64,000 nucleotides of DNA from an uncultured Methanosarcinales archaeon (GTDB lineage: Archaea > Nanobdellota > Nanobdellia > Woesearchaeales > UBA10107). The notes below the pieces were generated by a model. The model searched no databases. It was not told where the DNA came from and worked only from the letters and a program-made list of their open reading frames with translations. Position 1 is the stretch's first letter. Each line of letters opens with the position of its first letter. The stretch is from assembly GCA_965231065.1 (NCBI GenBank), contig OZ246410.1:193473-257472 (forward strand), given 5' to 3'. The position numbers and the translations under genes are program-made. Below are positions 3,467-47,508 of this stretch, one piece after another.

Positions 3467-3557
3467 TGCCACCGCTGGGAATTGAACCCAGATCATTGAC
3501 ATGCGACTGTCTATCCAGCTTACAAGGCTGGTACTCTATCCTTTAAGCTACGGTGGC
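3467..3557 (-). tRNA. tRNA, 91 nt, anticodon UGU (Thr) by hand fold, with a 23-nt insertion at the variable-loop position (possible non-canonical intron or long extra arm)
   Basis: Minus-strand read GCCACCG-UA-GCUU-AAAGGAUA-GAGU-A-CCAGC-CUUGUAA-GCUGG-[AUAGACAGUCGCAUGUCAAUGAU]-CUGGG-UUCAAUU-CCCAG-CGGUGGC-A; perfect 5-bp anticodon stem, 7-bp acceptor, T-loop UUCAAUU. Confidence 0.7.
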
Positions 3558-4339: not shown

Positions 4340-5628
4340 TTATTTATCATATGAATACTTATATTTAAATTTAACTATTTCATATGAAAAATCGGAATGT
4401 TTAAATATATATTCACATTTATCATATGAATAATGAGAAAGATAAAAGAGATCGAATTTGAGATTGAAGTCTCGAATCAGGATATGGAATTTGTTAAAAT
4501 CAGGAAGAAGATTGTCTATGACTGAAATCCAAACACTACTAGAACCAAAGAGAAAGGTCTCATTACCAAAGAAGAGAAGAACCTATCCTCAGAAGTGGCA
4601 TTTCTATTATCAAGCATCACGAACAGAAAAGCTCATGTTCTTCCGAATCATCAAGGACGCTGTCGATTATCTCGATATTGAGGCAAAATACAAGGGAACA
4701 GGCAGACCACCAGCAAATATCAAGGATATTGTGAAAGCTCTCTGTATCAAAGGCTATTGCGGTCTATCGTCATGGAGAATCGAATCTGAATTGAAATTAG
4801 CACAAACCTTTGGAATTATTAATAAGGTCTATAAGCGTTCAGCCTTGAACAATTATCTCAATAACAAATATGTAGTTGAGATTCTGAAAGAACTTCTAAA
4901 GACCATTGCAGAACCATTACAGGAGATTGAAGAGACAGTTGCCATAGATGCGACAGGAATGGCAAGTTCCTATGGGAAAAAGAGATGGGTTGAAGTAAGA
5001 TTAACTCATCGTCTCAGAAAAGACTTTGCCAAACTCCATATAATTTCAGGAGTGAAATCAAATATAATCTTTTCTGCTGATGTTACGGAAGGAACTTCAA
5101 GCGATAGTCCACATCTTAAAGAGTTGCTTGAAGAATTACGATTCAAACCAAGAGAATTTGTTGCTGATGCCGGATACATATCAAAAGACAATGTTATTGC
5201 GATATCTGACAAAGGCATCAAGCCGTTCATCATGCCAAGAAAGAACATAACAGGACAAAGAGGCGGTAGTGCATCATGGAGATACTTAATTCGTCTTTGG
5301 AAAGAAAACAAAGAAATCTTTCTCATGCACTATCACGCAAGATCAAATGTCGAAAGTACATTTAGTATGTTGAAAAGAAAGTTCGGCGACTATGTCAGAG
5401 CAAAGAATATCATCGGGCAGACTGCCGACATATTATCAAAAGTTGTCTGTTTGAATGCAGTCATCCTATCAGAAGCAATGCTAGAATATGGAATTAGGAC
5501 ACGCTTCCAAAATGATGGATTTCCTTACACCCAAGAACAGCCATATAATGAGTTTGTGGTCAAATAGAGCCTTTATGGTCAAAGCCTTAAGAAACAAAAC
5601 GTTTAAATATGGGTATCATTAAAGAGTA
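4340..5628 (+). mobile_element. Approximate extent of an IS element carrying the IS4/IS5-family transposase; ends not resolved
   Basis: Transposase ORF flanked by AT-rich non-coding sequence containing gtttaaatat motifs on both sides (4399-4408 and 5601-5610) and three tcatatgaa repeats on the left; no clean terminal inverted repeat could be defined by eye. Confidence 0.4.
4458..5567 (+). CDS. DDE transposase, IS4/IS5 (DDE_Tnp_1) superfamily
   Basis: 369 aa; IDATG (D1), VADAGY (D2) and C-terminal YHARSNVESTFSMLKRKFG (the Y-x2-R-x3-E-x6-K signature of IS4/IS5 transposases). Confidence 0.8.
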   Translation: MRLKSRIRIWNLLKSGRRLSMTEIQTLLEPKRKVSLPKKRRTYPQKWHFYYQASRTEKLMFFRIIKDAVDYLDIEAKYKGTGRPPANIKDIVKALCIKGYCGLSSWRIESELKLAQTFGIINKVYKRSALNNYLNNKYVVEILKELLKTIAEPLQEIEETVAIDATGMASSYGKKRWVEVRLTHRLRKDFAKLHIISGVKSNIIFSADVTEGTSSDSPHLKELLEELRFKPREFVADAGYISKDNVIAISDKGIKPFIMPRKNITGQRGGSASWRYLIRLWKENKEIFLMHYHARSNVESTFSMLKRKFGDYVRAKNIIGQTADILSKVVCLNAVILSEAMLEYGIRTRFQNDGFPYTQEQPYNEFVVK

Positions 5629-8136
5629 GTGAAAATGTTGGGGCAAAAAAAGTTCATCGGACTGTTAAGTGTATTCTTGATCTTATTCAGCGTATTGCCA
5701 GCATTCGCTTTGCAAGAACAGTTTGATGTTGTCTCGGCAAAATCAATTGCTGCATGTTCAAATGGTGTCACGACAGATTCTATAACCATCAGAAACACCG
5801 GAGACATCGAAAGTGGATTCACTATTTCTGATTCAGGATCTGCTTCTGAGTTCACTACGTTTTCTGAGACATCGGTTTCAGTAAAACCAGGTGAATCAAA
5901 GACTGTATTTGCGTACATGAGTCCGAGTGGCAGAAAAGGCAACTATGATCTTAGCGCTATCATAACCAGTGCATTAGGAGAAAAGAAATCAGTTTCACAA
6001 TCAATTGAAGTGCAGAACTGCGCAAACATGCAAGTCTCGATCAAGACTCCGACAGTCACGGTAAATCCATGTCAGGTCTCTCAGTTTAGCTTCGATATCG
6101 CAAACACCGGTGATTATGCCGAGACATATGACTTCAAGGTCAAAGGACTCGAAGGATACACGACAGTAAGCACTAACAGCATATTCCTTGCTCCACAAGA
6201 GAGAAAGCAGATCGATGTGTTTGTCAATCCTTCCTGTAATATTTATGGACAAAAAGAATTGACATTGCAAACGACAGCACGAACAAGCCAATATGTAGCT
6301 CAAGCACACGTTGTGTTGAATATCCTACAGAATTATGAGTATGCAGTCGCAGTACAACCACAGGTAACTGTCTGTAACGCAAAGCAAATCGCAATTCCAA
6401 TCAGCATCGCGAACAAAGTACCGTTTGTGAATCAATATGACATCACAATCCATGGTCCAAATTTCTTGAAGCAGGAAGCACGACGTGTTGAACTCGGACC
6501 GTACATGAGCGGCATCACAAATCTATTCACCGTCGCAGATCATGCAGGAAGTTACCCGATCGACATCATTGTCAAATCAGTCAGGGGCGATGTCATCAAG
6601 GCAGGAACACAGAATCTTACGGTCGAGAACTGCTACGATGCGAATGTCAATATCGAGAATCCGTCTGATATCGTCATTGCAGGAAACAAAGCAAGCTACA
6701 AGGTCACGATCCTAAATCAAGGAACAAAAACAGACAGTTACACATTCGAACTGAATGCGCCTTCATTCGTTACATTCAGCGGCACGACACTACAGTTGAA
6801 TCCAAAAGAATCAAAGACGCTGACTCTTGAAGCGAATGTGCCTTCGAACGTCACCGGTTCATTTGTTGCAGTCCTGAAAGCAATTTCAAAAGAAACAGGC
6901 ATCGTCAAAGGGGACAAGATACAGATTAGTGTCTTGAGTCCTGACAAGGCATATAGCTTAAAGATATCACCACGACACTTACGAGTCTTATTCGGACAGG
7001 ATGCAGTCATACTTGGTCTGCAGAATAAAGGAATCTTACCAGCGACGTATGATTTCAGCTTGAAAGCACCATCATGGATGAAATTAGCGCAGAATTCCAT
7101 AACACTACAGCCAGGCGAAAAGAAAGATGTCTTTATCGCGACAAGTGCAGACAAGAAGAAGAATCAGGTCGCCAACTACGAAGCATCAGTCACTGCGACA
7201 GTCAAAGGGTCTGTCGGATTTGTCTCTAAATTCAACATCAGTTTACGAGAAGTGACATTGTTACAGGAGTTATATATTTTCTCTGTAAAATACATGTACT
7301 TCTTAATCGCAGGAGCTGTTGTACTCCTTATCTTACTATTCATCCTTATCTTTGGAAACAGAATCGCACGCAGATACAGAGCTTGGAAGATTAAGCGAGC
7401 TGAAATAGCGAAGATCAAGGCTGAATTGAAACAGCGAAGGAAAGAAGAGAAGCTTGCGAAGAAATTGATGAAGGAATCATTGAAACGATCACATCCTTCA
7501 AAATTCTGGAAGCGATTCTTTGGTGTCTTATTCATATTAGTTGCATTAGTATTGCTCACGGGCGCTGTCCTGTATGGAATCGGTTACGGTCCTATTGCTC
7601 AGGAATTCTTCAAACAGAAGCAGGCAGAGACTAAGTTTGCGCCGATCGTCAAGGTCAATACGACAGGATTGGAAGCATATGGCAATACGGTCATCGTACG
7701 AGGCACCGATGATGTCATTGTTCCTATCATCGTCAAGAATAATTTCGATAATGATCTCACCTTTGGTGTCGAAGTCAATCAGAAATGGATCAAGACCAAT
7801 GTTAAGGAGATTCGATTGGAAGCAGGCGACGAAGAAGTCATTAAATTACGAATAACACCGAGCGCGACTGAAGACGGCGTCTATAAGATCAGAGTCTCAG
7901 CACAGCTTGAACAAGAGGACAAGATCTACAACGAGGATATCACGCTCAACATCAGGAAAAAGAATGTACTGAGAGATATATTGAATTATGTACCGTATGT
8001 TGTTGGCGGAATCGTTGTTTTGATCGCTGGCTTATATTTCTATAAGAAACGAAAGAGAGAGTCAAGGGAAGCATTTGCTTCACGAAAGGCAAAACCTGCA
8101 CGGAAGATTGAAGTTTCTTTGCCGAAGAAAAGATAA
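5629..8136 (+). CDS. Large (835 aa) exported membrane/surface protein with signal peptide, at least four CARDB/Ig-like repeat modules, three TM segments and Lys/Arg-rich coiled regions
   Basis: N-terminal signal MKMLGQKKFIGLLSVFLILFSVLPAFA; repeated N-x-G...Y.F modules (SITIRNTGDIESGFTISDSG, SFDIANTGDYAETYDFKVKG, VTILNQGTKTDSYTFELNAPSF, LGLQNKGILPATYDFSLKAPSW); TM helices near residues 545-570, 625-650 and 785-805; K/R-rich stretches. Confidence 0.65.
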   Translation: MKMLGQKKFIGLLSVFLILFSVLPAFALQEQFDVVSAKSIAACSNGVTTDSITIRNTGDIESGFTISDSGSASEFTTFSETSVSVKPGESKTVFAYMSPSGRKGNYDLSAIITSALGEKKSVSQSIEVQNCANMQVSIKTPTVTVNPCQVSQFSFDIANTGDYAETYDFKVKGLEGYTTVSTNSIFLAPQERKQIDVFVNPSCNIYGQKELTLQTTARTSQYVAQAHVVLNILQNYEYAVAVQPQVTVCNAKQIAIPISIANKVPFVNQYDITIHGPNFLKQEARRVELGPYMSGITNLFTVADHAGSYPIDIIVKSVRGDVIKAGTQNLTVENCYDANVNIENPSDIVIAGNKASYKVTILNQGTKTDSYTFELNAPSFVTFSGTTLQLNPKESKTLTLEANVPSNVTGSFVAVLKAISKETGIVKGDKIQISVLSPDKAYSLKISPRHLRVLFGQDAVILGLQNKGILPATYDFSLKAPSWMKLAQNSITLQPGEKKDVFIATSADKKKNQVANYEASVTATVKGSVGFVSKFNISLREVTLLQELYIFSVKYMYFLIAGAVVLLILLFILIFGNRIARRYRAWKIKRAEIAKIKAELKQRRKEEKLAKKLMKESLKRSHPSKFWKRFFGVLFILVALVLLTGAVLYGIGYGPIAQEFFKQKQAETKFAPIVKVNTTGLEAYGNTVIVRGTDDVIVPIIVKNNFDNDLTFGVEVNQKWIKTNVKEIRLEAGDEEVIKLRITPSATEDGVYKIRVSAQLEQEDKIYNEDITLNIRKKNVLRDILNYVPYVVGGIVVLIAGLYFYKKRKRESREAFASRKAKPARKIEVSLPKKR

Positions 8137-29155: not shown

Positions 29156-30211
29156 TCAATCAAGTTGATAACGCAATAATGCAGCGATCCCACCCAATCC
29201 ATCTAACTGTTTGCCGCCTTCATGATCAGATGAGACAATCATGATTTTTCCTTTCATAGAATTCACTTTCTTCAGTATATAATCGACACGGTCAAAAGAA
29301 TTTTCTTCTCTTGTCTTCTGAATATATGAATCAGTCACCAATAGAATCTTGACTGCACCGGCATCGGTCGCTTTCTCGACTTCATCGATTCCATATTTCG
29401 CGAGCTTTCCGGTCATGATATCCTTCAGTAATTCTTCGACTAATGCGATTTCTTCGACTGCGCGGCTTTCTTTGAGAGCTGTTTCTACCTCTGGACGCTT
29501 CAATACTTCATTGAATGCGGTCTTATCGGCAGATGAGCACGTCGCGACCAGTATTTTCTTCCTGAGCTCCTGATCTTTGATCTGCTTGAGCAAATAGTCT
29601 TTCCAAAATGCAGGACTCGCAACCACAATACGTTCAATGCCATATCGTTTTACATATTCAGATATCTGATCAGCGATCTTCTGATAGAATGTACCTTCTG
29701 TCTTGGTATCTTCTCCTTTTTTTGGCAGATCACTCTTAATTTCAGATAGATATTCGTATCCATATGTCTTTGCATATGCAAAATGCGCTTCATCCCTGTC
29801 AAATACCACCAACAGAACTTTTGGCTGCTGCTCAGCACTCGCTTCTTTTAATTTCTCTATCTGAAAATCAAGCCATTCTTCTTTTTCTATAGTGATGATG
29901 CTATTCAATTCAACATTGAATGTATGGTGTGTACCACGTGGCACATCCTCGGGTCCTTCCTGGATGATGCCAGAGACGCGTAATATATCGGTCTGTTTAT
30001 GGAATTCTGTTTTCTCTACAATGAGACTCAAGAACACAGGCTTTTTTACAACCTTCTGATTCATTGCTTCACCGATTTTTATTTTACGAAGCGTTTCTCC
30101 TTTGACTATGTCCTTTGGATCGATAATCTGTGACAAGTACCAAAGGTCGTCTAAGGTCGTAATCTTGACCTTTGCCCCTCCTTTTTTAAAGTCGGAAAAG
30201 ATGATTTTCAT
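29156..30211 (-). CDS. Pelota/Dom34 (mRNA surveillance, eRF1-like)
   Basis: About 351 aa from MKIIFSDFKKG; three-domain eRF1-like pattern with conserved central RVSGII...PRGTHHT and C-terminal GGIAALLRY. Confidence 0.8.
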   Translation of the reverse strand: MKIIFSDFKKGGAKVKITTLDDLWYLSQIIDPKDIVKGETLRKIKIGEAMNQKVVKKPVFLSLIVEKTEFHKQTDILRVSGIIQEGPEDVPRGTHHTFNVELNSIITIEKEEWLDFQIEKLKEASAEQQPKVLLVVFDRDEAHFAYAKTYGYEYLSEIKSDLPKKGEDTKTEGTFYQKIADQISEYVKRYGIERIVVASPAFWKDYLLKQIKDQELRKKILVATCSSADKTAFNEVLKRPEVETALKESRAVEEIALVEELLKDIMTGKLAKYGIDEVEKATDAGAVKILLVTDSYIQKTREENSFDRVDYILKKVNSMKGKIMIVSSDHEGGKQLDGLGGIAALLRYQLD

Positions 30212-30260
30212 CACTGTAAAACAGAAAAACATATATATAAAACCCCTTCTTTTAAGCTGT

Positions 30261-31442
30261 ATGTTACGTAAAAGAGGGCAAGCAGGCGCTGCAGCAGGTT
30301 TTGTTGCGATTGTAGCAGGTTTAATTGTCCTCTATATTCTACTATTGCCTGCAGATGTGCGTGATTCGTTATTGCAGCAGACAACAACATCAGGAACAGG
30401 TTCTCAGCAGACCACAACACTTTCAAAGAATGTATTGGTATTTGAACATCCAGGAACGTTAGACCCGGTAAAGCTCAGAGATAGAGAAAAGATACTTGAT
30501 TCTTTCAATCTATATTCAGAAAAGACAGCAGTGGTCTTGAAATCAGCTCCTGCGGTACGTTTGGAAAGCGGTTGGTTGCAGAAAAAAACATATAATCTAT
30601 CATTTGCTGTTGACGATCTTAAAAATACAGAGAATTATGTGCTCGCATTCGATGTAGCACAATCATCCGGTAATGTTATCATTTCCTTGAATGGAAAGGA
30701 AATCTATAATTCACAAGTATCGATCGGAAATGTCGAGCCGATCGCGATCGAACGATCAGACATACAGAGTCAAAATTCATTGATACTTTCAGTTTCGGGA
30801 GTTGGTTTAGCTTTCTGGAAGTTGAATGCGTATGATCTCAAGAATCTCCGCGTCATCGCTGATTTCACCGATATCAGTAAGCGTGTGTATAAGAATTTCT
30901 TTGTCATATCCGCGACTGAAAAAGAGAATTTCGACCACACAAAGCTCAATTTCGTACCGAACTGCCTAACAACGAAGGTTGGACCATTGAAGATCGCCAT
31001 CAATGATCGTGATCTTCCCTATTCGGCAATTCCTGACTGTGGATTATTGTCAACAATAGAATTTGATCCGAACTACCTCAAGCAAGGAGAGAACGTCATT
31101 ACATTCAGCGCAGAAGAAGGAAGTTACTTCGTCGATAGTGTTTCCATAAGATCAGAATTGAAGCAACTCACGTATCCATTCTATTACTTTGAACTAAAGA
31201 CAGATGACAAGCAGAAGATAGACAACAGTACTGCAAATCTCACTCTTGATCTTAATTTCGCAGATCTTGAAGATAAAGAAGGAGAGTTGAATGTCAACGG
31301 TCATCTGAGCAGTATACTCACCAGTAATTCGACCTTTTTCAAGAATCTGAAGGAATTGTCCAAAGAAGGGCAGAACTACATACAGATCGTCCCGAAGACA
31401 ATCTTGAATATCGTCGATCTGAAAGTCTCACTTATCAAATAA
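30261..31442 (+). CDS. Signal-anchored exported protein (N-terminal TM, Thr-rich linker, ~330-aa extracytoplasmic domain), unknown function; first gene of a five-gene surface cluster
   Basis: Likely start MLRKRGQAGAAAGFVAIVAGLIVLYILLLPA (the ORF-track start further upstream overlaps pelota); linker QQTTTSGTGSQQTTT; no recognisable catalytic motif. Confidence 0.5.
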   Translation: MLRKRGQAGAAAGFVAIVAGLIVLYILLLPADVRDSLLQQTTTSGTGSQQTTTLSKNVLVFEHPGTLDPVKLRDREKILDSFNLYSEKTAVVLKSAPAVRLESGWLQKKTYNLSFAVDDLKNTENYVLAFDVAQSSGNVIISLNGKEIYNSQVSIGNVEPIAIERSDIQSQNSLILSVSGVGLAFWKLNAYDLKNLRVIADFTDISKRVYKNFFVISATEKENFDHTKLNFVPNCLTTKVGPLKIAINDRDLPYSAIPDCGLLSTIEFDPNYLKQGENVITFSAEEGSYFVDSVSIRSELKQLTYPFYYFELKTDDKQKIDNSTANLTLDLNFADLEDKEGELNVNGHLSSILTSNSTFFKNLKELSKEGQNYIQIVPKTILNIVDLKVSLIK

Positions 31443-31459
31443 TTCTTATGAGAGGATGA

Positions 31460-33100
31460 ATGGCAGTAAAAGAAACAGAGATTGATAGACTTCATGAAGA
31501 GGCATTGCGAGAGAATGCAGCGATACGACAGGAAGAAATACGAGCAAGAGCAGCTGAACGTGCACGTGTACAGGAGCGAAGAAGCTCCAAAGATGATCCT
31601 CCGGAGACCGAGACTCCTTTCTTCTCAGCAAAAGCAAGTTTCTCCTGGCTCTTACTATTGTGTATCATCAACGATTTCTATGATTGGTATTCTGGCTACC
31701 AGATCAATCCAATCTCATTAGGGATTGATGCATTCACTTTCATTGTCTTTTACCTCAACGGGTTCAAGAGCGGCACCAAGTTCTTTTTATTGCTCACTAC
31801 AGCATTGCTTGACTTTATCTTGCCTGGACCTTTGGCAGGCTGGGGCATTGCACCGCAGCTGACGGGTATTATCATCATTATCCCCTGGTGGGTTGTCTTC
31901 GCTCTGATATCAAAATATTCATTCGGTATCGAATCAAAATTTGCGGATTCGATCGCTATTGTAGGATTCATCGTCGGTGTATTCCTGTTGACACCATTCC
32001 TATTGACATCACCGACTGATACCGTCATCAATCAAAAATGGGTGCATACTACCTGGGATGTAGTCTCAAATGCATTCTCGAATGCAGGATCTTCGGTTTC
32101 ATTAGGATGGAAACAGATACAGTGCAGTTATTTCAGTATTTCTGAAGAAGCAAAATCAGCATGTGTGCAGGATTTGACAAAGGCAAACCAAGAGGACCAA
32201 TTAAAAAATCTTAAGGTGCAAGAAATACCAGGGTCCGGATTCTCTGCAGAATTTACTGAAATCGGTGTCCAGACAGGAGATACACTTCTGGACAACAAGA
32301 TACCGGTGCGCATCTCTGCAGTCAATAATCTTCAGACACCAATCACACTTGAGTTCGCGTGCGGTCTTGAAGGAAGAGCAGGAGGAACGGTTGTTCCGAC
32401 AACAAAAATTGTTGCGAAAGGAAGACTACCATTACAAGAAAGTTCGGTGAGCTGTGAAAATCTTGATATATCGAAGCGAGGCACACCGACATTCTACTTC
32501 AACATGACTGCGAAAGATGTGTCATCATCAGGAGATAAGGAGATCTTCATCGTCAGCGATGCTGCGAAGACCGCAGTCTTATCACAATACGAGGGCATCT
32601 CAGAGAATAAAGTATTGTTGTTATCAAGAGAATTCGGAGAATTCTTGAGAGCGACACAAAGCAGATTGAGTCCGAGAGTAGCTGCAGATGATTTAGTGCA
32701 GCCAATAATCAGAGTCGGTGTCACGACATCCATTGAAGCTGAACAGATATTGGTATATGGTATCAAGCCAGGGTTGAAGACACAATTTGCTTTATTCTTA
32801 AAGAACAATGGTAAAGGATCGATCGCAAACATCAAGAAAATCACATTCAAGCTCCCTGATGATTTCGCTTTCGATGTGAGTGATTGTGGCATCACCGATG
32901 CTAAACTGCAAAGTACCGATTGGAGAAGAATCACTGTCGGAAATCTCCAACGTGTCGCATTGTGTACCATTGAAGTTAGAGGCGAAAAACAATATCCAAA
33001 CCAAATTGATTCACGGTTATTCACGGCAACAGTCGAGTATGACTATGTATTATCAAAAGGCATCGATGTTAACATCGCACCAGGAATTGTGACCACATGA
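31460..33100 (+). CDS. Polytopic membrane protein: cytoplasmic charged coiled N-terminus, about five TM helices, ~350-aa extracytoplasmic C-terminal domain ending in a YxY motif shared with the downstream paralogs
   Basis: N-terminus EIDRLHEEALRENAAIRQEEIRARAAERARVQERR; TM helices WLLLLCIINDFY, FLLLTTALLDFILPGPLAGW, IIIIIPWWVVFALI, IVGFIVGVFLLTPFLL; C-terminus TATVEYDYVLSKGIDVNI. Confidence 0.5.
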   Translation: MAVKETEIDRLHEEALRENAAIRQEEIRARAAERARVQERRSSKDDPPETETPFFSAKASFSWLLLLCIINDFYDWYSGYQINPISLGIDAFTFIVFYLNGFKSGTKFFLLLTTALLDFILPGPLAGWGIAPQLTGIIIIIPWWVVFALISKYSFGIESKFADSIAIVGFIVGVFLLTPFLLTSPTDTVINQKWVHTTWDVVSNAFSNAGSSVSLGWKQIQCSYFSISEEAKSACVQDLTKANQEDQLKNLKVQEIPGSGFSAEFTEIGVQTGDTLLDNKIPVRISAVNNLQTPITLEFACGLEGRAGGTVVPTTKIVAKGRLPLQESSVSCENLDISKRGTPTFYFNMTAKDVSSSGDKEIFIVSDAAKTAVLSQYEGISENKVLLLSREFGEFLRATQSRLSPRVAADDLVQPIIRVGVTTSIEAEQILVYGIKPGLKTQFALFLKNNGKGSIANIKKITFKLPDDFAFDVSDCGITDAKLQSTDWRRITVGNLQRVALCTIEVRGEKQYPNQIDSRLFTATVEYDYVLSKGIDVNIAPGIVTT

Positions 33101-34029
33101 AGAAATTAATTTTAGTTATAACCTTAACTCTGGTGCTCTCAGGATGTACTTCCCTGTTAAAAGGAGGCCAAAATGCAGATATCCAGGGCAGTGACGGATT
33201 GGTCATGACCATCGGAAGATTGCCATCAGAAGTATCGGTCGGACAGGGTCTGCAGATACCGATTCAATTGGAAAATGTCGGTGTGCATAAAGTTGAGAAT
33301 GTGATACTCTCCATCTCCGGTTACAACCCTCAGTATGTGCATTTTAACGGATTGCCAAAGATAGAAGGCATTAATTTAGATGGCAGAAGTACATTTGTGC
33401 CGGTCGGAGAGAAGACAACAAAATTCTTCACGATTGATTCGATTACGTTACCAGATTATAAGGAGTTGCAGCAGACATTTGAAGCATATGCATGCTATCA
33501 ATACAAAACAGAAGCATCGCCTGTCGTCTGCATCAACCCGCAGCTTACGTTTGGTCTGACAGATATGAAATCCGGATGCACGTTCTACGATGCACAGATC
33601 AGTCCAAGTCAAGGTGCACCATTAGCTGTCACAAAAGTAGAATCATTCTACTACACCAATCAACATGATATTGAATTCAGAATCAGCGTACAAGATGTCT
33701 CTGGAAAAGGAGTTGTCTTAGATAGTTTAGCATACGGAAAACGCTGCTTAGGAACCGAAGCGCTCAAGACAGAAGATCTTAATACCATAAAAGTCGATGC
33801 ATTCATGAGCGGGCAGAAGCTCCCTTGTTATGTCGGTGAGACGCAGACAGACAAATTCCTTCTTCAGAATAATCTCAATGCAAACGAGTATTCGATACGA
33901 TGTGTCGCGAAGATCGATCCAGCAGAGCCAGCATTCACGACACCACTGAGCATCACGTTGTCATATGGATATGCGATCGGTAAATCATTCACCATTACAC
34001 TCAAGAACCCTTCCTTCGGCAGATCTTAA
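33097..34029 (+). CDS. Lipoprotein-like exported protein, paralog 1 of 3 (N-terminal Ig/CARDB-like module + six-Cys domain)
   Basis: Signal + lipobox MKKLILVITLTLVLSGC; LQIPIQLENVGVHKVENVILSISGYNPQYV; conserved Cys framework YACYQYKTEASPVVCINPQ...SGC...KRC...LPCY...IRC; C-terminal LSITLSYGYAIGK; start overlaps upstream stop (ATGA). Confidence 0.55.
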   Translation: MKKLILVITLTLVLSGCTSLLKGGQNADIQGSDGLVMTIGRLPSEVSVGQGLQIPIQLENVGVHKVENVILSISGYNPQYVHFNGLPKIEGINLDGRSTFVPVGEKTTKFFTIDSITLPDYKELQQTFEAYACYQYKTEASPVVCINPQLTFGLTDMKSGCTFYDAQISPSQGAPLAVTKVESFYYTNQHDIEFRISVQDVSGKGVVLDSLAYGKRCLGTEALKTEDLNTIKVDAFMSGQKLPCYVGETQTDKFLLQNNLNANEYSIRCVAKIDPAEPAFTTPLSITLSYGYAIGKSFTITLKNPSFGRS

Positions 34030-34076
34030 TAAATCAGACTGAAACATTTATATAATAAAGGGGGTTAATCCTGCAC

Positions 34077-34982
34077 ATGAACAAGCGAATCCCATTCCTG
34101 TTTTTAGTTCTGTTACTTCTCTCTTCCTGTGTCGGTACACGGACTGCTCAGACTAAAGAACAGGCAGCTTTAACCGATGATGCGCACCGGGGTGTCAAGG
34201 GGGTCACAATAAATTTCATCAAGAACAATCCGCCGGACATCGCATTCTCAGGAAATCCATTAGATATTGTTGTTGAAGTAAAAAATGAAGGAGCAGCGAC
34301 AGTCACCGGATCAAACCTCTTCCTTTCGGGATATGATCCAGTCATCTTCAAGATCAATCCGCGATTCAAGACACTTGATCGCCTTGAAGGCAGGACAAAA
34401 TTCAACACCTTTGGTGGTTACGATACTGCTGAATTCAAATCTGAAAACGTATTCTTACCACAGGGAACTGATACTTTGGATCAGACATTCCTCGCAAGCT
34501 TATGTTATGTGTACAGAACAGAAGCGCGAATTCCTGTCTGCATCGATCCAAGTCCTTTCTCGGTATTGGAGAATGAAGCATGCAGAGTCACGAATCCATC
34601 AGTCGGTGGTGGGCAAGGAGGTCCGGTATCGGTATCTGCAGTACGGGAAGATCCAGCGCCAGGACAAGTTGGATTCTACATAACCGTCGCAAACCAAGGA
34701 GATGGTATTGTTGTTGATCAGTTCTCTATGAGAGACTGTCCGAGTCCTCTGAATTTCGATGATGTTGATTCGGTTCAATACAGTGTAGCTCTTTCAGGAA
34801 AACCAGGAGACTGTAAACCAACCGGTAAACTCAGACTAGCAAATAAACAGGGAAGCCTGTATTGTATATTCAAGTTAGACAGTATATCTGCGACTGCATT
34901 CACAACTGTCCTTGAAATCAACCTTGATTATGGTTATCTGACACAGAAGACAAAGGCTGTAAAGGTTAAGAGCCTCAGTTAG
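34077..34982 (+). CDS. Lipoprotein-like exported protein, paralog 2 of 3
   Basis: MNKRIPFLFLVLLLLSSC signal/lipobox; PLDIVVEVKNEGAATVTGSNLFLSGYDPVIF; SLCYVYRTEARIPVCIDPS...EAC...RDC...GDC...LYC; C-terminal LEINLDYGYLTQK. Confidence 0.55.
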   Translation: MNKRIPFLFLVLLLLSSCVGTRTAQTKEQAALTDDAHRGVKGVTINFIKNNPPDIAFSGNPLDIVVEVKNEGAATVTGSNLFLSGYDPVIFKINPRFKTLDRLEGRTKFNTFGGYDTAEFKSENVFLPQGTDTLDQTFLASLCYVYRTEARIPVCIDPSPFSVLENEACRVTNPSVGGGQGGPVSVSAVREDPAPGQVGFYITVANQGDGIVVDQFSMRDCPSPLNFDDVDSVQYSVALSGKPGDCKPTGKLRLANKQGSLYCIFKLDSISATAFTTVLEINLDYGYLTQKTKAVKVKSLS

Positions 34983-35014
34983 GCGAAACATTTATATTCT
35001 ATCCTGGTTCTAAG

Positions 35015-35959
35015 ATGTGCATGAAAAGAGAGGTATTGATTCTGTTAGCGATCTTCTTATTAGTATTCGTTCCTGCCTGTAAAAAACAGGAAACAGCAGT
35101 CGTTGGAAAAGCATTTGTCGGTGGCAGCAAAGGATTAACATTAAGTTTCCTTCCGGGTGCACCTCCTGATTCTGTCTTTGATACTGATAATCCATTTGCT
35201 ATAAGTATACGATTAGAGAATGTCGGAGAATTCAATATCGATAAGGTTGCTGATGCAACAGTCGAAATTACCGGCATTGATCCTGCTGACTTTGGCGTCA
35301 CCAAGAATGATCTGCACAAAGATTCATCAGATACGCTGACGAGCGCAAGTCTTGACTCTGCAGGAAAAGTGGTTCAGGGGTCTGCTGCGGTTATTGATTT
35401 TGATAATTTACAATATAAGAAGAAAGTAAGCGGTACCTTCTCATTCCCGCTCATCGCAAGCGTCTGTTATGAATATGGAACAAAAGCACAGTCACAATTA
35501 TGCGTCCTCAAGGATCTTGCAGGAAAGACAACAGAAATACGATTCTGTGATCCGAATAATCAAAATATCGCATCAGAGAGTTCAGGAGCGCCTGTACAGG
35601 TTGTCTCCATGAGCGAGAATGTTCTTGGTTCAAATAAGGTAGCATTTTCATTCAGGATACGAAATGTAGGTACTGGCACATTACATCAGCAAGGCAAGGA
35701 ATGTTCTACTGCGATTGCAGACAAGGATAAGGTCTGGGTCGAGGTTATGGATACCGGATTAGGCGCATTGAGCTGTTCAGGATTGAAAGACGGCACTGAT
35801 AAGACAGGATATGTTACCTTATTCAACAATGAAGCGACTGTTCGGTGCACGCAGACAGTCGATACACCGACTGATTTGGTCAAGGTAATCGATGTCAATC
35901 TGCGATACGGATACAAGGAATCAATTCAGAAGACGTTGCAAGTCAAAGAATCAAGTTAA
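35015..35959 (+). CDS. Lipoprotein-like exported protein, paralog 3 of 3
   Basis: MCMKREVLILLAIFLLVFVPAC signal/lipobox; PFAISIRLENVGEFNIDKVADATVEITGIDPADF; SVCYEYGTKAQSQLCVLKD...RFC...KEC...LSC...VRC; C-terminal IDVNLRYGYKES. Confidence 0.55.
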   Translation: MCMKREVLILLAIFLLVFVPACKKQETAVVGKAFVGGSKGLTLSFLPGAPPDSVFDTDNPFAISIRLENVGEFNIDKVADATVEITGIDPADFGVTKNDLHKDSSDTLTSASLDSAGKVVQGSAAVIDFDNLQYKKKVSGTFSFPLIASVCYEYGTKAQSQLCVLKDLAGKTTEIRFCDPNNQNIASESSGAPVQVVSMSENVLGSNKVAFSFRIRNVGTGTLHQQGKECSTAIADKDKVWVEVMDTGLGALSCSGLKDGTDKTGYVTLFNNEATVRCTQTVDTPTDLVKVIDVNLRYGYKESIQKTLQVKESS

Positions 35960-46107: not shown

Positions 46108-47508
46108 TTATTCGCCACCCATGAATTTCCTCATGGCAGGATTCATATCCATCATATGCTGTCGTGCAACATCTTCATAGAGCTTGTAGATGATCATGAC
46201 CGTAAGCAAAAGACCGGTTCCGTTCGTCAATGCGCCAGAGAGGTCTGCAAAGCTTGCCAATAAACCAACTGATAGTGCACCCATAACTGTCAAGGGACCG
46301 ATGTATCTATCTAGAATCGATTCTAAGATCCGTTCATCTCTTCTAAATCCTGGTATCTGCAAACCCGAATTCATGATCTGTTTAGCCTGTGAACGTGCAT
46401 CCATGCCTGATGTCTGTACCCAGAACATACCAAACACAACTGCGCCGGTCATCATAAGGATAACGAACACTAATGCATTCAGATAGGCATGTAATCCAAT
46501 GAAGAGTGTTCCTTGTTTGATGATGGTGCCAATAATATTTGGAGGACTGATGTACGAAACCAATCCTGACGCTGGACTGTTACCGATAAATGTTCCTAGG
46601 ATAGGGAAGCCAGCATTCTGCAGCAATCGTGCCCATAATTGGATATTTGCAAACAATGCTGAAACTAAGATGACGGGAATATTTGATGTATACATGAAGT
46701 TCAGTGGCCATCGGATACCATATCCTCTGACTCTGCCGAAGCTCAATGGCAATTCAACTTTCATCGATTGTGCATAGACCGCTACCATGAAGATAGCAAC
46801 AGTCGCTACGACCGATGATAACATCAGTAGTGCAGTGGTCGGATCACCTGCAAGTAGACTTTGGAATAATGCAGGAATCGCTCCGGTCATAATCTCCGGA
46901 TTACTCGGAGACGGCAGTGGACTCAGTGCTCGTACAAAGATACTCTTCGAGACGCCTGCAGCGATGAATAACGAAAGACCGGAACCAAAGCCCCATTTCG
47001 ATGAAACTTCATCCATGAGCATAATGAGGAATCCTCCTATGAAAAGTTGTGCGACAAGCACTAGCTCAAGGGTAAAGTATAGTGCAGTTCCCTTTAGTTC
47101 AACCGCGGGTGCTAAACCGCCAAAAAATACATAGATGACTCCTTCGAATAAGATGAAAAAGAGCGACAATAGTTTCTGCGTTCCCTGGAACCGCATCTTG
47201 CCTTCATGACTTTGAAGGTCGAACTTGACAATACCTGCACCGTTCAATAATTGCAATACGATCGATGCGGTAACAATAGGACCGATTCCCAATGAGATTA
47301 AAGAACCAAACTCAGCGCCAAGGATTAATGAGAGCAATTCAAATGTCTGCAATGCATTCTGCCCCAGACCATACAAAGGAATGACCTGCAGTAAGAAAAA
47401 GATGATTAGAATCGATAACGTCCACATCAATTTTGTCTTGAACGTCAGCCGTTCCTTCGGCTTTGCCACTTCAGGCAGGTTTTCTAGCAGTTTGTCGTAA
47501 AAAGACAT
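46108..47508 (-). CDS. secY: Preprotein translocase SecY
   Basis: 466 aa, 10-TM SecY/Sec61-alpha pattern; canonical position after L15. Confidence 0.93.
   Translation of the reverse strand: MSFYDKLLENLPEVAKPKERLTFKTKLMWTLSILIIFFLLQVIPLYGLGQNALQTFELLSLILGAEFGSLISLGIGPIVTASIVLQLLNGAGIVKFDLQSHEGKMRFQGTQKLLSLFFILFEGVIYVFFGGLAPAVELKGTALYFTLELVLVAQLFIGGFLIMLMDEVSSKWGFGSGLSLFIAAGVSKSIFVRALSPLPSPSNPEIMTGAIPALFQSLLAGDPTTALLMLSSVVATVAIFMVAVYAQSMKVELPLSFGRVRGYGIRWPLNFMYTSNIPVILVSALFANIQLWARLLQNAGFPILGTFIGNSPASGLVSYISPPNIIGTIIKQGTLFIGLHAYLNALVFVILMMTGAVVFGMFWVQTSGMDARSQAKQIMNSGLQIPGFRRDERILESILDRYIGPLTVMGALSVGLLASFADLSGALTNGTGLLLTVMIIYKLYEDVARQHMMDMNPAMRKFMGGE

Follow-up and report, generated by a model that had tools for sequence, protein, structure and literature searches.

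A five-gene cluster for exported proteins on a Woesearchaeal chromosome as a candidate undescribed cell-surface system

Within a 64-kb window of an archaeal chromosome (64,000 nucleotides of contig OZ246410.1, to which all positions given here refer), five open reading frames (ORFs) follow one another on the plus strand between 30261 and 35959, separated by gaps of 17, -4, 47 and 32-38 nt. As gene order and spacing directly show, these five genes, here called G1 to G5, make up one operon. G1 (30261-31442) encodes 393 amino acids (aa) and shares its start, MLRKRGQ, with the public gene call. It is followed by G2 (31460-33100, 546 aa) and by G3 (33097-34029, 310 aa), which overlaps G2 by 4 nt, then by G4 (34077-34982, 301 aa) and G5 (35021-35959), for which the public gene call gives 312 aa and an alternative start at 35015 gives 314 aa. 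G3, G4 and G5 belong to one lipoprotein family (LP) and are also referred to as LP1, LP2 and LP3. The cluster is flanked by pelota, which is divergent from G1, and by the gene for the RFC small subunit (rfcS), which is convergent with G5 and lies 14 nt from its end. A first-pass annotation, made from the letters alone, had pointed to a tight plus-strand cluster of exported or membrane proteins on the chromosome of a small-genome archaeon, among housekeeping genes. This description is fully supported: the organism belongs to the DPANN archaea (Woesearchaeota), the same housekeeping block is found in its relatives, and every product shows an export or membrane feature, namely a prepilin-type signal (G1), transmembrane (TM) segments (G2) or lipoboxes (G3-G5). 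Exact copies of the five products are deposited on a 774-kb contig at NCBI, and none of them carries a name in the public gene calls. Their three protein families are unannotated, the five-gene combination matches no described system, and the cell-surface system that they may form appears to be undescribed.

The last three genes encode paralogs. G3, G4 and G5 align over their full length in BLASTP comparisons with 24-30% identity (E = 4e-25 for G3 with G4, 2e-11 and 3e-16 for the other two pairs) and have six invariant Cys residues, CYxYxT, GxP and YGY in common. In G3, the Cys framework comprises residues 133, 145, 161, 217, 244 and 269, and the aromatic motif Y290-G-Y292 is located in a long C-terminal hairpin; G4 and G5 show the same six-Cys framework. 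A signal peptide precedes the lipobox LSGC of G3 (Cys17), which is also matched by Pfam LPAM_1, the lipobox LSSC of G4 (Cys18) and the lipobox-like VPAC of G5. Conservation among 223 members of the LP family amounts to 92% for the lipobox Cys, 81-100% for the six framework Cys and 95 and 94% for the tyrosines Y290 and Y292, respectively, and a hydrophobic stretch followed by [LIV][ASVT][GAS]C was found in 205 of the 207 members with an N-terminus. The initial view of three paralogs of about 300 aa, each with a signal peptide, a lipobox and a six-Cys framework, is confirmed. The LPs share this [LIV][ASVT][GAS]C pattern after an n- and h-region with the lipobox lipoproteins of bacteria (Lgt/Lsp pathway) and of haloarchaea (AliA/AliB in Haloferax volcanii, PMC13631571), and their lipidation is predicted. 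In the AlphaFold 2 model of G3 (pLDDT, the predicted local distance difference test, 88.2; pTM, the predicted template modelling score, 0.81), the polypeptide forms two beta-sandwich domains, for which the structure search returned generic beta-sandwich matches only. The Ig- or CARDB-like N-terminal domain that had been suggested earlier is thus retained as a beta-sandwich in the model of G3, but profiles of CARDB or named Ig-like families gave no significant match to the window proteins; judged from this model, G3-G5 are Ig/CARDB-like in fold only. Solute-binding-type mature domains are usual among archaeal lipoproteins, and the mature domains of the LPs, unlike these, form a new double beta-sandwich family. 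An enzymatic function of the paralogs was rejected; neither a catalytic family nor a conserved polar triad was found, and conservation falls on Cys, Gly, Pro and aromatic residues.

The LP family is large, its profile matching 2,918 cluster representatives at 50% identity with E <= 1e-3 and 803 of them with E <= 1e-30. When 54 clean LP triplets were compared across genomes, 85-93% of the best matches were found at the same gene position (90% for G4, 93% for G5), which indicates that the triplication is ancient and that the three copies are not interchangeable.

G2 starts with a charged, probably helical and cytoplasmic N-terminus of 60 residues (12 of them Lys or Arg), followed by four strong hydrophobic segments and one weaker one, which correspond to about five TM helices between residues ~62 and 185. 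The remaining ~360 aa (residues ~186-546) represent an extracytoplasmic domain with the conserved Cys301, 332, 476 and 502, in line with the earlier prediction of a protein with about five TM segments and an outer domain. Conservation within the G2 family is concentrated in this ectodomain, while only P142 exceeds 80% in the TM region. Such a TM region, almost free of conserved residues, suggests an anchor and not a channel or enzyme; a role of G2 as transporter or enzyme is disfavoured on the same ground. G2 ends with the motif Y527-x-Y529 (Y-D-Y), and Y-x-Y is kept in 93-95% of 60 near-full-length family members, so that the C-terminal aromatic motif noticed at the outset is indeed common to the G2 and LP families.

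This common ending is part of a wider resemblance. In an hhalign comparison of 91 G2 with 223 LP sequences, residues 247-542 of G2 were collinear with residues 48-306 of the LPs over 243 columns (E 2.2e-4). Several positions conserved throughout the families correspond to each other: F-x-N-F-x-T-x-A-Y in G2 to C-Y-x-Y-x-T-x-A in the LPs, G-P-V to G-A-P-V, N-x-W-x-G-x-I to N-x-G-x-G-x-V, the late Cys to the late Cys, and the terminal Y-x-Y to its LP counterpart. Because of the collinear alignment and these shared positions, we regard the G2 ectodomain as a probable distant paralog of the LPs, i.e. a fourth, divergent copy of the lipoprotein fold. Comparisons of G2 and LP profiles built from a single sequence or from eight sequences gave no match. 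As a separate observation, the TM module is tandemly duplicated in many G2 orthologs, which show two matches of the hidden Markov model (HMM) to G2 residues ~8-180 (loci L018, L053, L061, L064, L066, L036, L037, L042, L044 and L019). This duplication might mean that G2 proteins with a single module act as dimers.

The N-terminus of G1 represents a class III (prepilin-type) signal, MLRKRG/QAGAAAGFVAIVAGLIVLYILLL (signal at 30261-30278), with Q7 as +1 residue and a hydrophobic helix of residues 7-30. It shows the features of this signal class, i.e. a short basic N-terminus, Gly or Ala at -1 and about 20 hydrophobic residues. The pattern [KR][KR][GAS]Q followed by ~22 hydrophobic residues was found in 61 of 70 G1 homologs, and the Gln is invariant in an alignment of 21 homologs. 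A comparable signal of 5-13 residues, ending in Gly and followed by a conserved +1 Gln, has been described for the EppA-processed pilins of Methanococcus (PMC3875500). The helix is followed by a Thr/Ser-rich linker (residues ~39-55; 30375-30425), of which residues 39-53 are modelled as disordered (pLDDT <50), and then, in the AlphaFold 2 model, by three beta jelly rolls resembling carbohydrate-binding modules (CBMs) at residues ~56-205, 209-300 and 307-392. A Cys pair, C235/C260, is conserved. The closest structural matches of the jelly rolls are domains that bind or handle carbohydrates, at 9-15% sequence identity: the carbohydrate-binding domains of BcsB, domains of PNGase F, CBM6/35/36 and the sugar-binding domain of GH2. 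These G1 relatives in fold differ from our case in that no synthase or hydrolase occurs in the region of the window, and Pfam gave one CBM-like match to G1, below threshold. The first-pass annotation had described G1 as a signal-anchored protein with a Thr-rich stalk. The Thr-rich linker was found, whereas the plain anchor turned out to be a class III signal and the stalk continues into three jelly rolls. Going by the model, G1 looks like a tethered arm that may bind glycans, more than like a stalk. For the confident models of both G1 and G3, the structure searches proposed at the outset thus returned generic jelly-roll or beta-sandwich folds only.

A prepilin-type signal raises the question whether the cluster belongs to a type IV filament or type IV secretion system (T4SS), in which G1 would be a minor or tip pilin, G2 a polytopic VirB6/VirB1-like protein with a domain that cuts the wall, and the LPs VirB7/9-like or pilotin-like proteins. 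The cluster has indeed part types analogous to VirB1 with its SLT domain, VirB2/5, VirB6 and VirB7; a transglycosylase SLT domain occurs in some members, as described below, and bacterial trans-envelope machines carry dedicated SLT enzymes. Moreover, the most distant G1 homologs (26% identity; L006 4331-9104 and L007 1110-5883) are located three genes from a Peptidase_A24 gene, which is the sole association with a prepilin peptidase, and within the short stretch at hand no G2 or LP gene was detectable next to them. However, a PilB/FlaI/VirB4/VirD4 ATPase or a PilC/FlaJ protein was found neither in the cluster nor in the 64-kb window or the ~80 related loci. More generally, the cluster, the scanned ORFs of the window and the called genes of the related loci contained no assembly ATPase, PilC/FlaJ or prepilin peptidase, and no VirB4-type or coupling ATPase occurred among the neighbours in the window and its relatives. 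VirB11 is likewise missing, the proteins share neither sequence nor fold homology with T4SS components and no sequence similarity with any component of type IV pili, and the cluster belongs to the chromosome and is passed on vertically. In addition, it would be the wall of another organism that is cut. G1 shares the signal format with the EppA-processed DUF361 pilins of Methanococcus maripaludis and with class III sugar-binding proteins of Sulfolobus, but it has no +5 Glu, no DUF361 match and no pilus assembly genes nearby. Its globular part is not packed on the helix as in polymerising pilins; instead of their compact domain there is a disordered linker and a 340-residue head of three separate jelly rolls. 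G1 is nearer to membrane-tethered class III proteins than to filament subunits, and for lack of the ATPases a type IV pilus or T4SS was rejected; an accessory of such a machine seems to us most improbable.

Further support for export comes from N-glycosylation sequons (N-x-S/T), of which G3, G4 and G5 have none, G2 has one and G1 four. Relative to within-protein shuffles, the 223 lipoproteins contain 0.10 of the expected number (50 vs 515 +/- 23, z -20), the G2 ectodomains 0.40 (z -8.6) and the G1 family 0.54 (z -8.2), with z-scores that overstate independence because the sequences are related. The reverse control S/T-x-N reached 0.87, 0.84 and 1.36 of expectation in the three sets, D-x-S/T reached 1.08 in the lipoproteins, and N-x-S/T 1.63 in the cytoplasmic neighbours. 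The near-absence of sequons from the LPs persists across 25-30% identity (LP genes in loci L001-L088). Since the oligosaccharyltransferase meets translocated proteins only, this avoidance supports export of the products. It also suggests that glycans on the surfaces of G1, G2 and the LPs are selected against, as would be the case for tightly packed subunits or binding faces, and it fits exposed protein surfaces that are competent for interaction.

Scans of G1-G5 against Pfam, NCBIfam and PHROGs returned lipobox or signal-peptide matches and the sub-threshold CBM-like match already mentioned, and the comparison of PDB sequences with the profiles of the G1, G2 and LP families gave nothing below E 0.03. 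In agreement with the original assessment, no named family or enzyme class could be assigned, and in the accessible part of the literature no description of the five-gene cluster was found. Three outcomes named beforehand as speaking against the proposal, namely membership in a known enzyme family, Cys and terminal motifs that do not align, and absence of co-conservation, were not encountered. The components use known targeting signals and common folds, and we rate the newness as that of the gene families and of the system architecture.

To follow the cluster in relatives, one genome per species was scanned, which yielded 80 loci. The ORFs called in these loci were compared with HMMs built for the three families and for the genes next to the cluster in the window. 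Homologs with a name come from metagenome-assembled genomes (MAGs) assigned to Woesearchaeota, Nanoarchaeota or Nanoarchaeia. The arrangement of a divergent pelota, G1, G2, three LP genes and a convergent rfcS followed by a PRC-domain gene, and in part by tyrS, was found in ~80 species, in almost all loci of sufficient length. Synteny is kept even where the identity of the surface proteins is down to ~25-35%; pelota and rfcS have 46-69% there. The ORF located between G1 and LP1 is a G2 homolog, covering G2 residues ~59-541, in 63 of 64 loci, and G2 evolves fast, with 37% identity where rfcS has 83%. Such conserved synteny indicates that the cluster is a vertically inherited core feature of an order-level group and not a mobile island. 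An origin from a mobile element or virus was rejected in view of the housekeeping synteny block; in addition, no relative of the cluster was found on viral contigs in a scan run without the G1 alignment.

Some loci deviate from the common arrangement or from their labels. In a distant marine lineage (L004 8001-12027 and L005 1128-5681), G1 and G2 are accompanied by a single lipoprotein gene, followed immediately downstream by a glutaredoxin gene, and pelota and G1 are separated by a small ORF for a Cys-rich secreted protein of 129 aa. The rfcS ORF measures 794-955 aa in L037, L057, L058 and L076, and pelota 783 aa in L063, i.e. two to three times the normal length, which is compatible with inteins or fusions. 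Furthermore, the Woesearchaeal synteny block was found in a MAG deposited as 'Candidatus Binatia bacterium' (L068) and in many deposited as 'Methanosarcinales'; these are probably mis-binned contigs or placeholder labels.

Near-universal and strictly syntenic vertical conservation within a housekeeping block is also what could be expected of a constitutive structural envelope module made up of G1, G2 and the LPs, for example an S-layer-like coat, a set of membrane anchors or a scaffold of a pseudo-periplasm, on which, as it is abundant, some species would simply display hydrolases and adhesins. A membrane-proximal layer would go well with lipid and TM anchors, a pseudo-symmetric lattice unit could arise from the three fixed paralog lineages, and Ig-like domains would be in place there as well. 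On the other hand, the LPs are small (~280 mature residues), G2 diverges as rapidly as stated above, and the lineage-specific swapping of distal G2 modules, to which we come next, is more typical of interaction than of lattice proteins. As a rule, S-layer proteins and pilins of archaea carry heavy N-glycosylation, while the proteins of the cluster avoid sequons, tenfold in the case of the LPs. Hence, we hold a structural envelope role to be rather unlikely.

Functional hints come mainly from the orthologs. Many G2 orthologs are longer than the protein of the window (600-1,180 aa), and 40 of the 68 complete orthologs run past the conserved core by 60 residues or more. A Pfam scan assigned a transglycosylase SLT domain to 12 of these extensions, Peptidase_M23 to two, Glucosaminidase (GH73) to one, FN3 to two and Beta/gamma-crystallin to one; with an iterated SLT HMM the number of SLT-bearing orthologs rose to ~17. 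Most of these SLT domains show the catalytic E-S and G-x-M-Q motifs, a few being matched as short fragments only. In L081, LP1 (820 aa) carries a 3D domain, i.e. an MltA-type fold. Altogether, four unrelated murein-active folds (SLT, M23, GH73 and 3D) are fused to components of the cluster and are scattered over the G1-based tree, with a murein hydrolase on the outward C-terminus of ~30% of the G2 orthologs and once on LP1. Two further unannotated extension families resemble Ig-like repeats and a Cys-rich knot followed by helices. The G2 proteins of the window and of its closest relatives have no extension.

Archaea of the Woesearchaeal group are not known to synthesise murein, so that a murein substrate must come from bacteria. 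From the fusions with hydrolase and adhesin modules, which provide indirect evidence, a role in attachment or cell interaction may be deduced. Earlier papers proposed that Woesearchaeota and Pacearchaeota use murein transglycosylase proteins to attach to bacteria or to attack them (PMC8204110, PMC9723730, PMC12352652); in the passages retrieved from these papers by term search, none is placed in a five-gene cluster. As far as the retrieved passages tell, the published proteins (PMC8204110, PMC9723730) agree with the SLT-bearing G2 orthologs in being membrane-anchored, extracellular GH23 proteins from the same lineages, and the proposed function, by which the bacterial wall is attached to or attacked, is the same as here. 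They differ from our case in that the G2 of the window has no SLT domain, and the passages found by term search showed no pilin-like or lipoprotein partner. The G2 orthologs may or may not be members of the family fam00969 (proteins of up to 3,000 aa).

The same fusions, together with the CBM-like domains of G1, would also be consistent with nutrient scavenging that does not involve cell contact, in which free wall debris or other glycans are captured at the cell surface and, in species with a hydrolase, degraded, so as to supply amino sugars or amino acids to a cell of poor biosynthetic capacity; dead-bacterial peptidoglycan has been proposed as nutrient for related DPANN archaea (PMC11537232). 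However, neither the cluster nor its immediate neighbours encode a transporter, an ATPase or a substrate-binding protein, the version in the window lacks any hydrolase, and a simple display of enzymes would leave three fixed structural paralogs unexplained. Scavenging therefore appears improbable to us, more so than an envelope module.

Taken together, we favour, though tentatively and partly by inference, a vertically inherited surface platform of Woesearchaeota/Nanoarchaeia that binds the wall of a partner and cuts it where equipped to do so. G2 would be held in the membrane by its ~five TM helices and present a disulfide-stabilised double beta-sandwich ectodomain, while G3-G5 would carry an ectodomain of the same kind on N-terminal lipid anchors, in three ancient lineages. 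Because G2 and the LPs share this ectodomain type and the LP lineages are not interchangeable, the four proteins are most likely assembled into a hetero-oligomeric base at the outer surface of the membrane. G1 would be cut by a prepilin-type peptidase, held by its N-terminal helix, and extend its three CBM-like jelly rolls on the flexible Thr-rich linker, forming an arm that binds glycans. Lineage-specific effector or binding modules would be attached to the outward C-terminus of G2, i.e. murein hydrolases in ~30% of the species and Ig-like, FN3 or Cys-knot modules in others. Such a module may bind the wall of another cell, presumably of a bacterium that serves as partner or prey, and where a hydrolase is present the wall may also be cut. 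Since the version in the window is minimal and hydrolase-free, a role in contact or adhesion would be expected in the organism of the window. The platform, stalk and tip arrangement sketched in the first-pass annotation is thus kept in part: a membrane-anchored base is proposed here as well, whereas the LPs are no longer seen as tips and G1 is more than a mere stalk. The LPs are more likely a membrane-proximal base, because the variable distal modules of the orthologs sit on the C-terminus of G2.

Several points weigh against such a partner-binding platform. The likeness of G1 to CBMs holds, in the model, at the level of the fold only, and neither a hydrolase (SLT/GH23, M23, GH73 or 3D) nor a recognisable binding site was found in G1-G5. 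About 70% of the G2 orthologs have no hydrolase, and the murein link derives from the orthologs. Among the scanned ORFs of the window there is neither a prepilin peptidase gene nor a lipoprotein-processing gene. The relationship of G2 to the LPs reaches an hhalign probability of 45%, and the union of the five proteins in one complex is, like the other cell's wall as target, inferred. Finally, deep and strictly vertical conservation beside housekeeping genes fits a structural envelope role as well. The remaining probability goes to some explanation not yet conceived.

The start of pelota is most likely at 30211 on the minus strand (MKIIFSDF...), which leaves an intergenic region of 49 nt (30212-30260). 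It contains a TATA-like element, CATATATATAAAA (30230-30242), of the palindromic TATATATA type, ~25 nt from the ATGs of both G1 and pelota. Based on its sequence and position, CATATATATAAAA is a possible shared bidirectional promoter that would give rise to leaderless transcripts of pelota and G1. A promoter and terminator scan, which used a sigma-70 model uninformative for archaea, gave counts at or below shuffle expectation. The genes next to the cluster in the window and in relatives comprise pheST, trmB, pelota, rfcS, a PRC-domain protein gene, tyrS and PAN, and outside these parts the window represents core chromosome with genes for PolD, Cdc6, MCM, pheST, PAN, SecY, SUF genes and tRNAs.

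A few features elsewhere in the window should also be mentioned. At 4458-5567 on the plus strand, an ORF matched by the transposase domain DDE_Tnp_1 (E 1e-19) adjoins two tRNA genes in otherwise housekeeping surroundings. This ORF is followed on the same strand (5629-8136) by the gene for an 835-aa protein with several weak Ig-like or Fn3-like matches (FixG_C, Cep192_D3, HYDIN-like), which is a candidate for another surface or S-layer-type protein. On the minus strand, a tRNA match at 3467-3557 spans 91 nt against a model of 71 positions, which suggests an intron or a long variable arm. Between 48000 and 58000, the AT skew is strongly negative (to -0.37) where several short genes follow one another on the minus strand, upstream of secY (46108-47508); they presumably represent the ribosomal protein operon.

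Woesearchaeota and their relatives represent a large share of archaeal diversity, and we know of no cultured representative of the Woesearchaeota. In a bolder version of the proposed platform, which we consider speculative and about as doubtful as the envelope role, the cluster would encode an unrecognised cell-contact machine that is both specific to and universal in Woesearchaeota/Nanoarchaeia, made up of a hetero-oligomeric base with four paralogous disulfide-locked ectodomains (three on lipid anchors, one on TM helices), a prepilin-processed lectin arm and an exchangeable 'warhead' on G2. This 'warhead' would set the type of partner, with murein hydrolases for bacterial partners or prey, while partners that lack a wall or are archaea would go with adhesin modules or with no module at all. 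If true, this very large group of uncultured archaea would have its first defined apparatus for host interaction. The tenfold avoidance of sequons in the LPs is an uncommon feature among archaeal surface proteins, and one that can be put to the test. Murein transglycosylases, published so far as isolated genes, are placed by our analysis in a defined five-component surface module, which is conserved across the group and comprises three unannotated families (the LP family alone with ~2,900 clusters), clear export signals and a fixed order of subunits. Hence, this module gives a candidate route by which uncultured Woesearchaeota may contact other cells.

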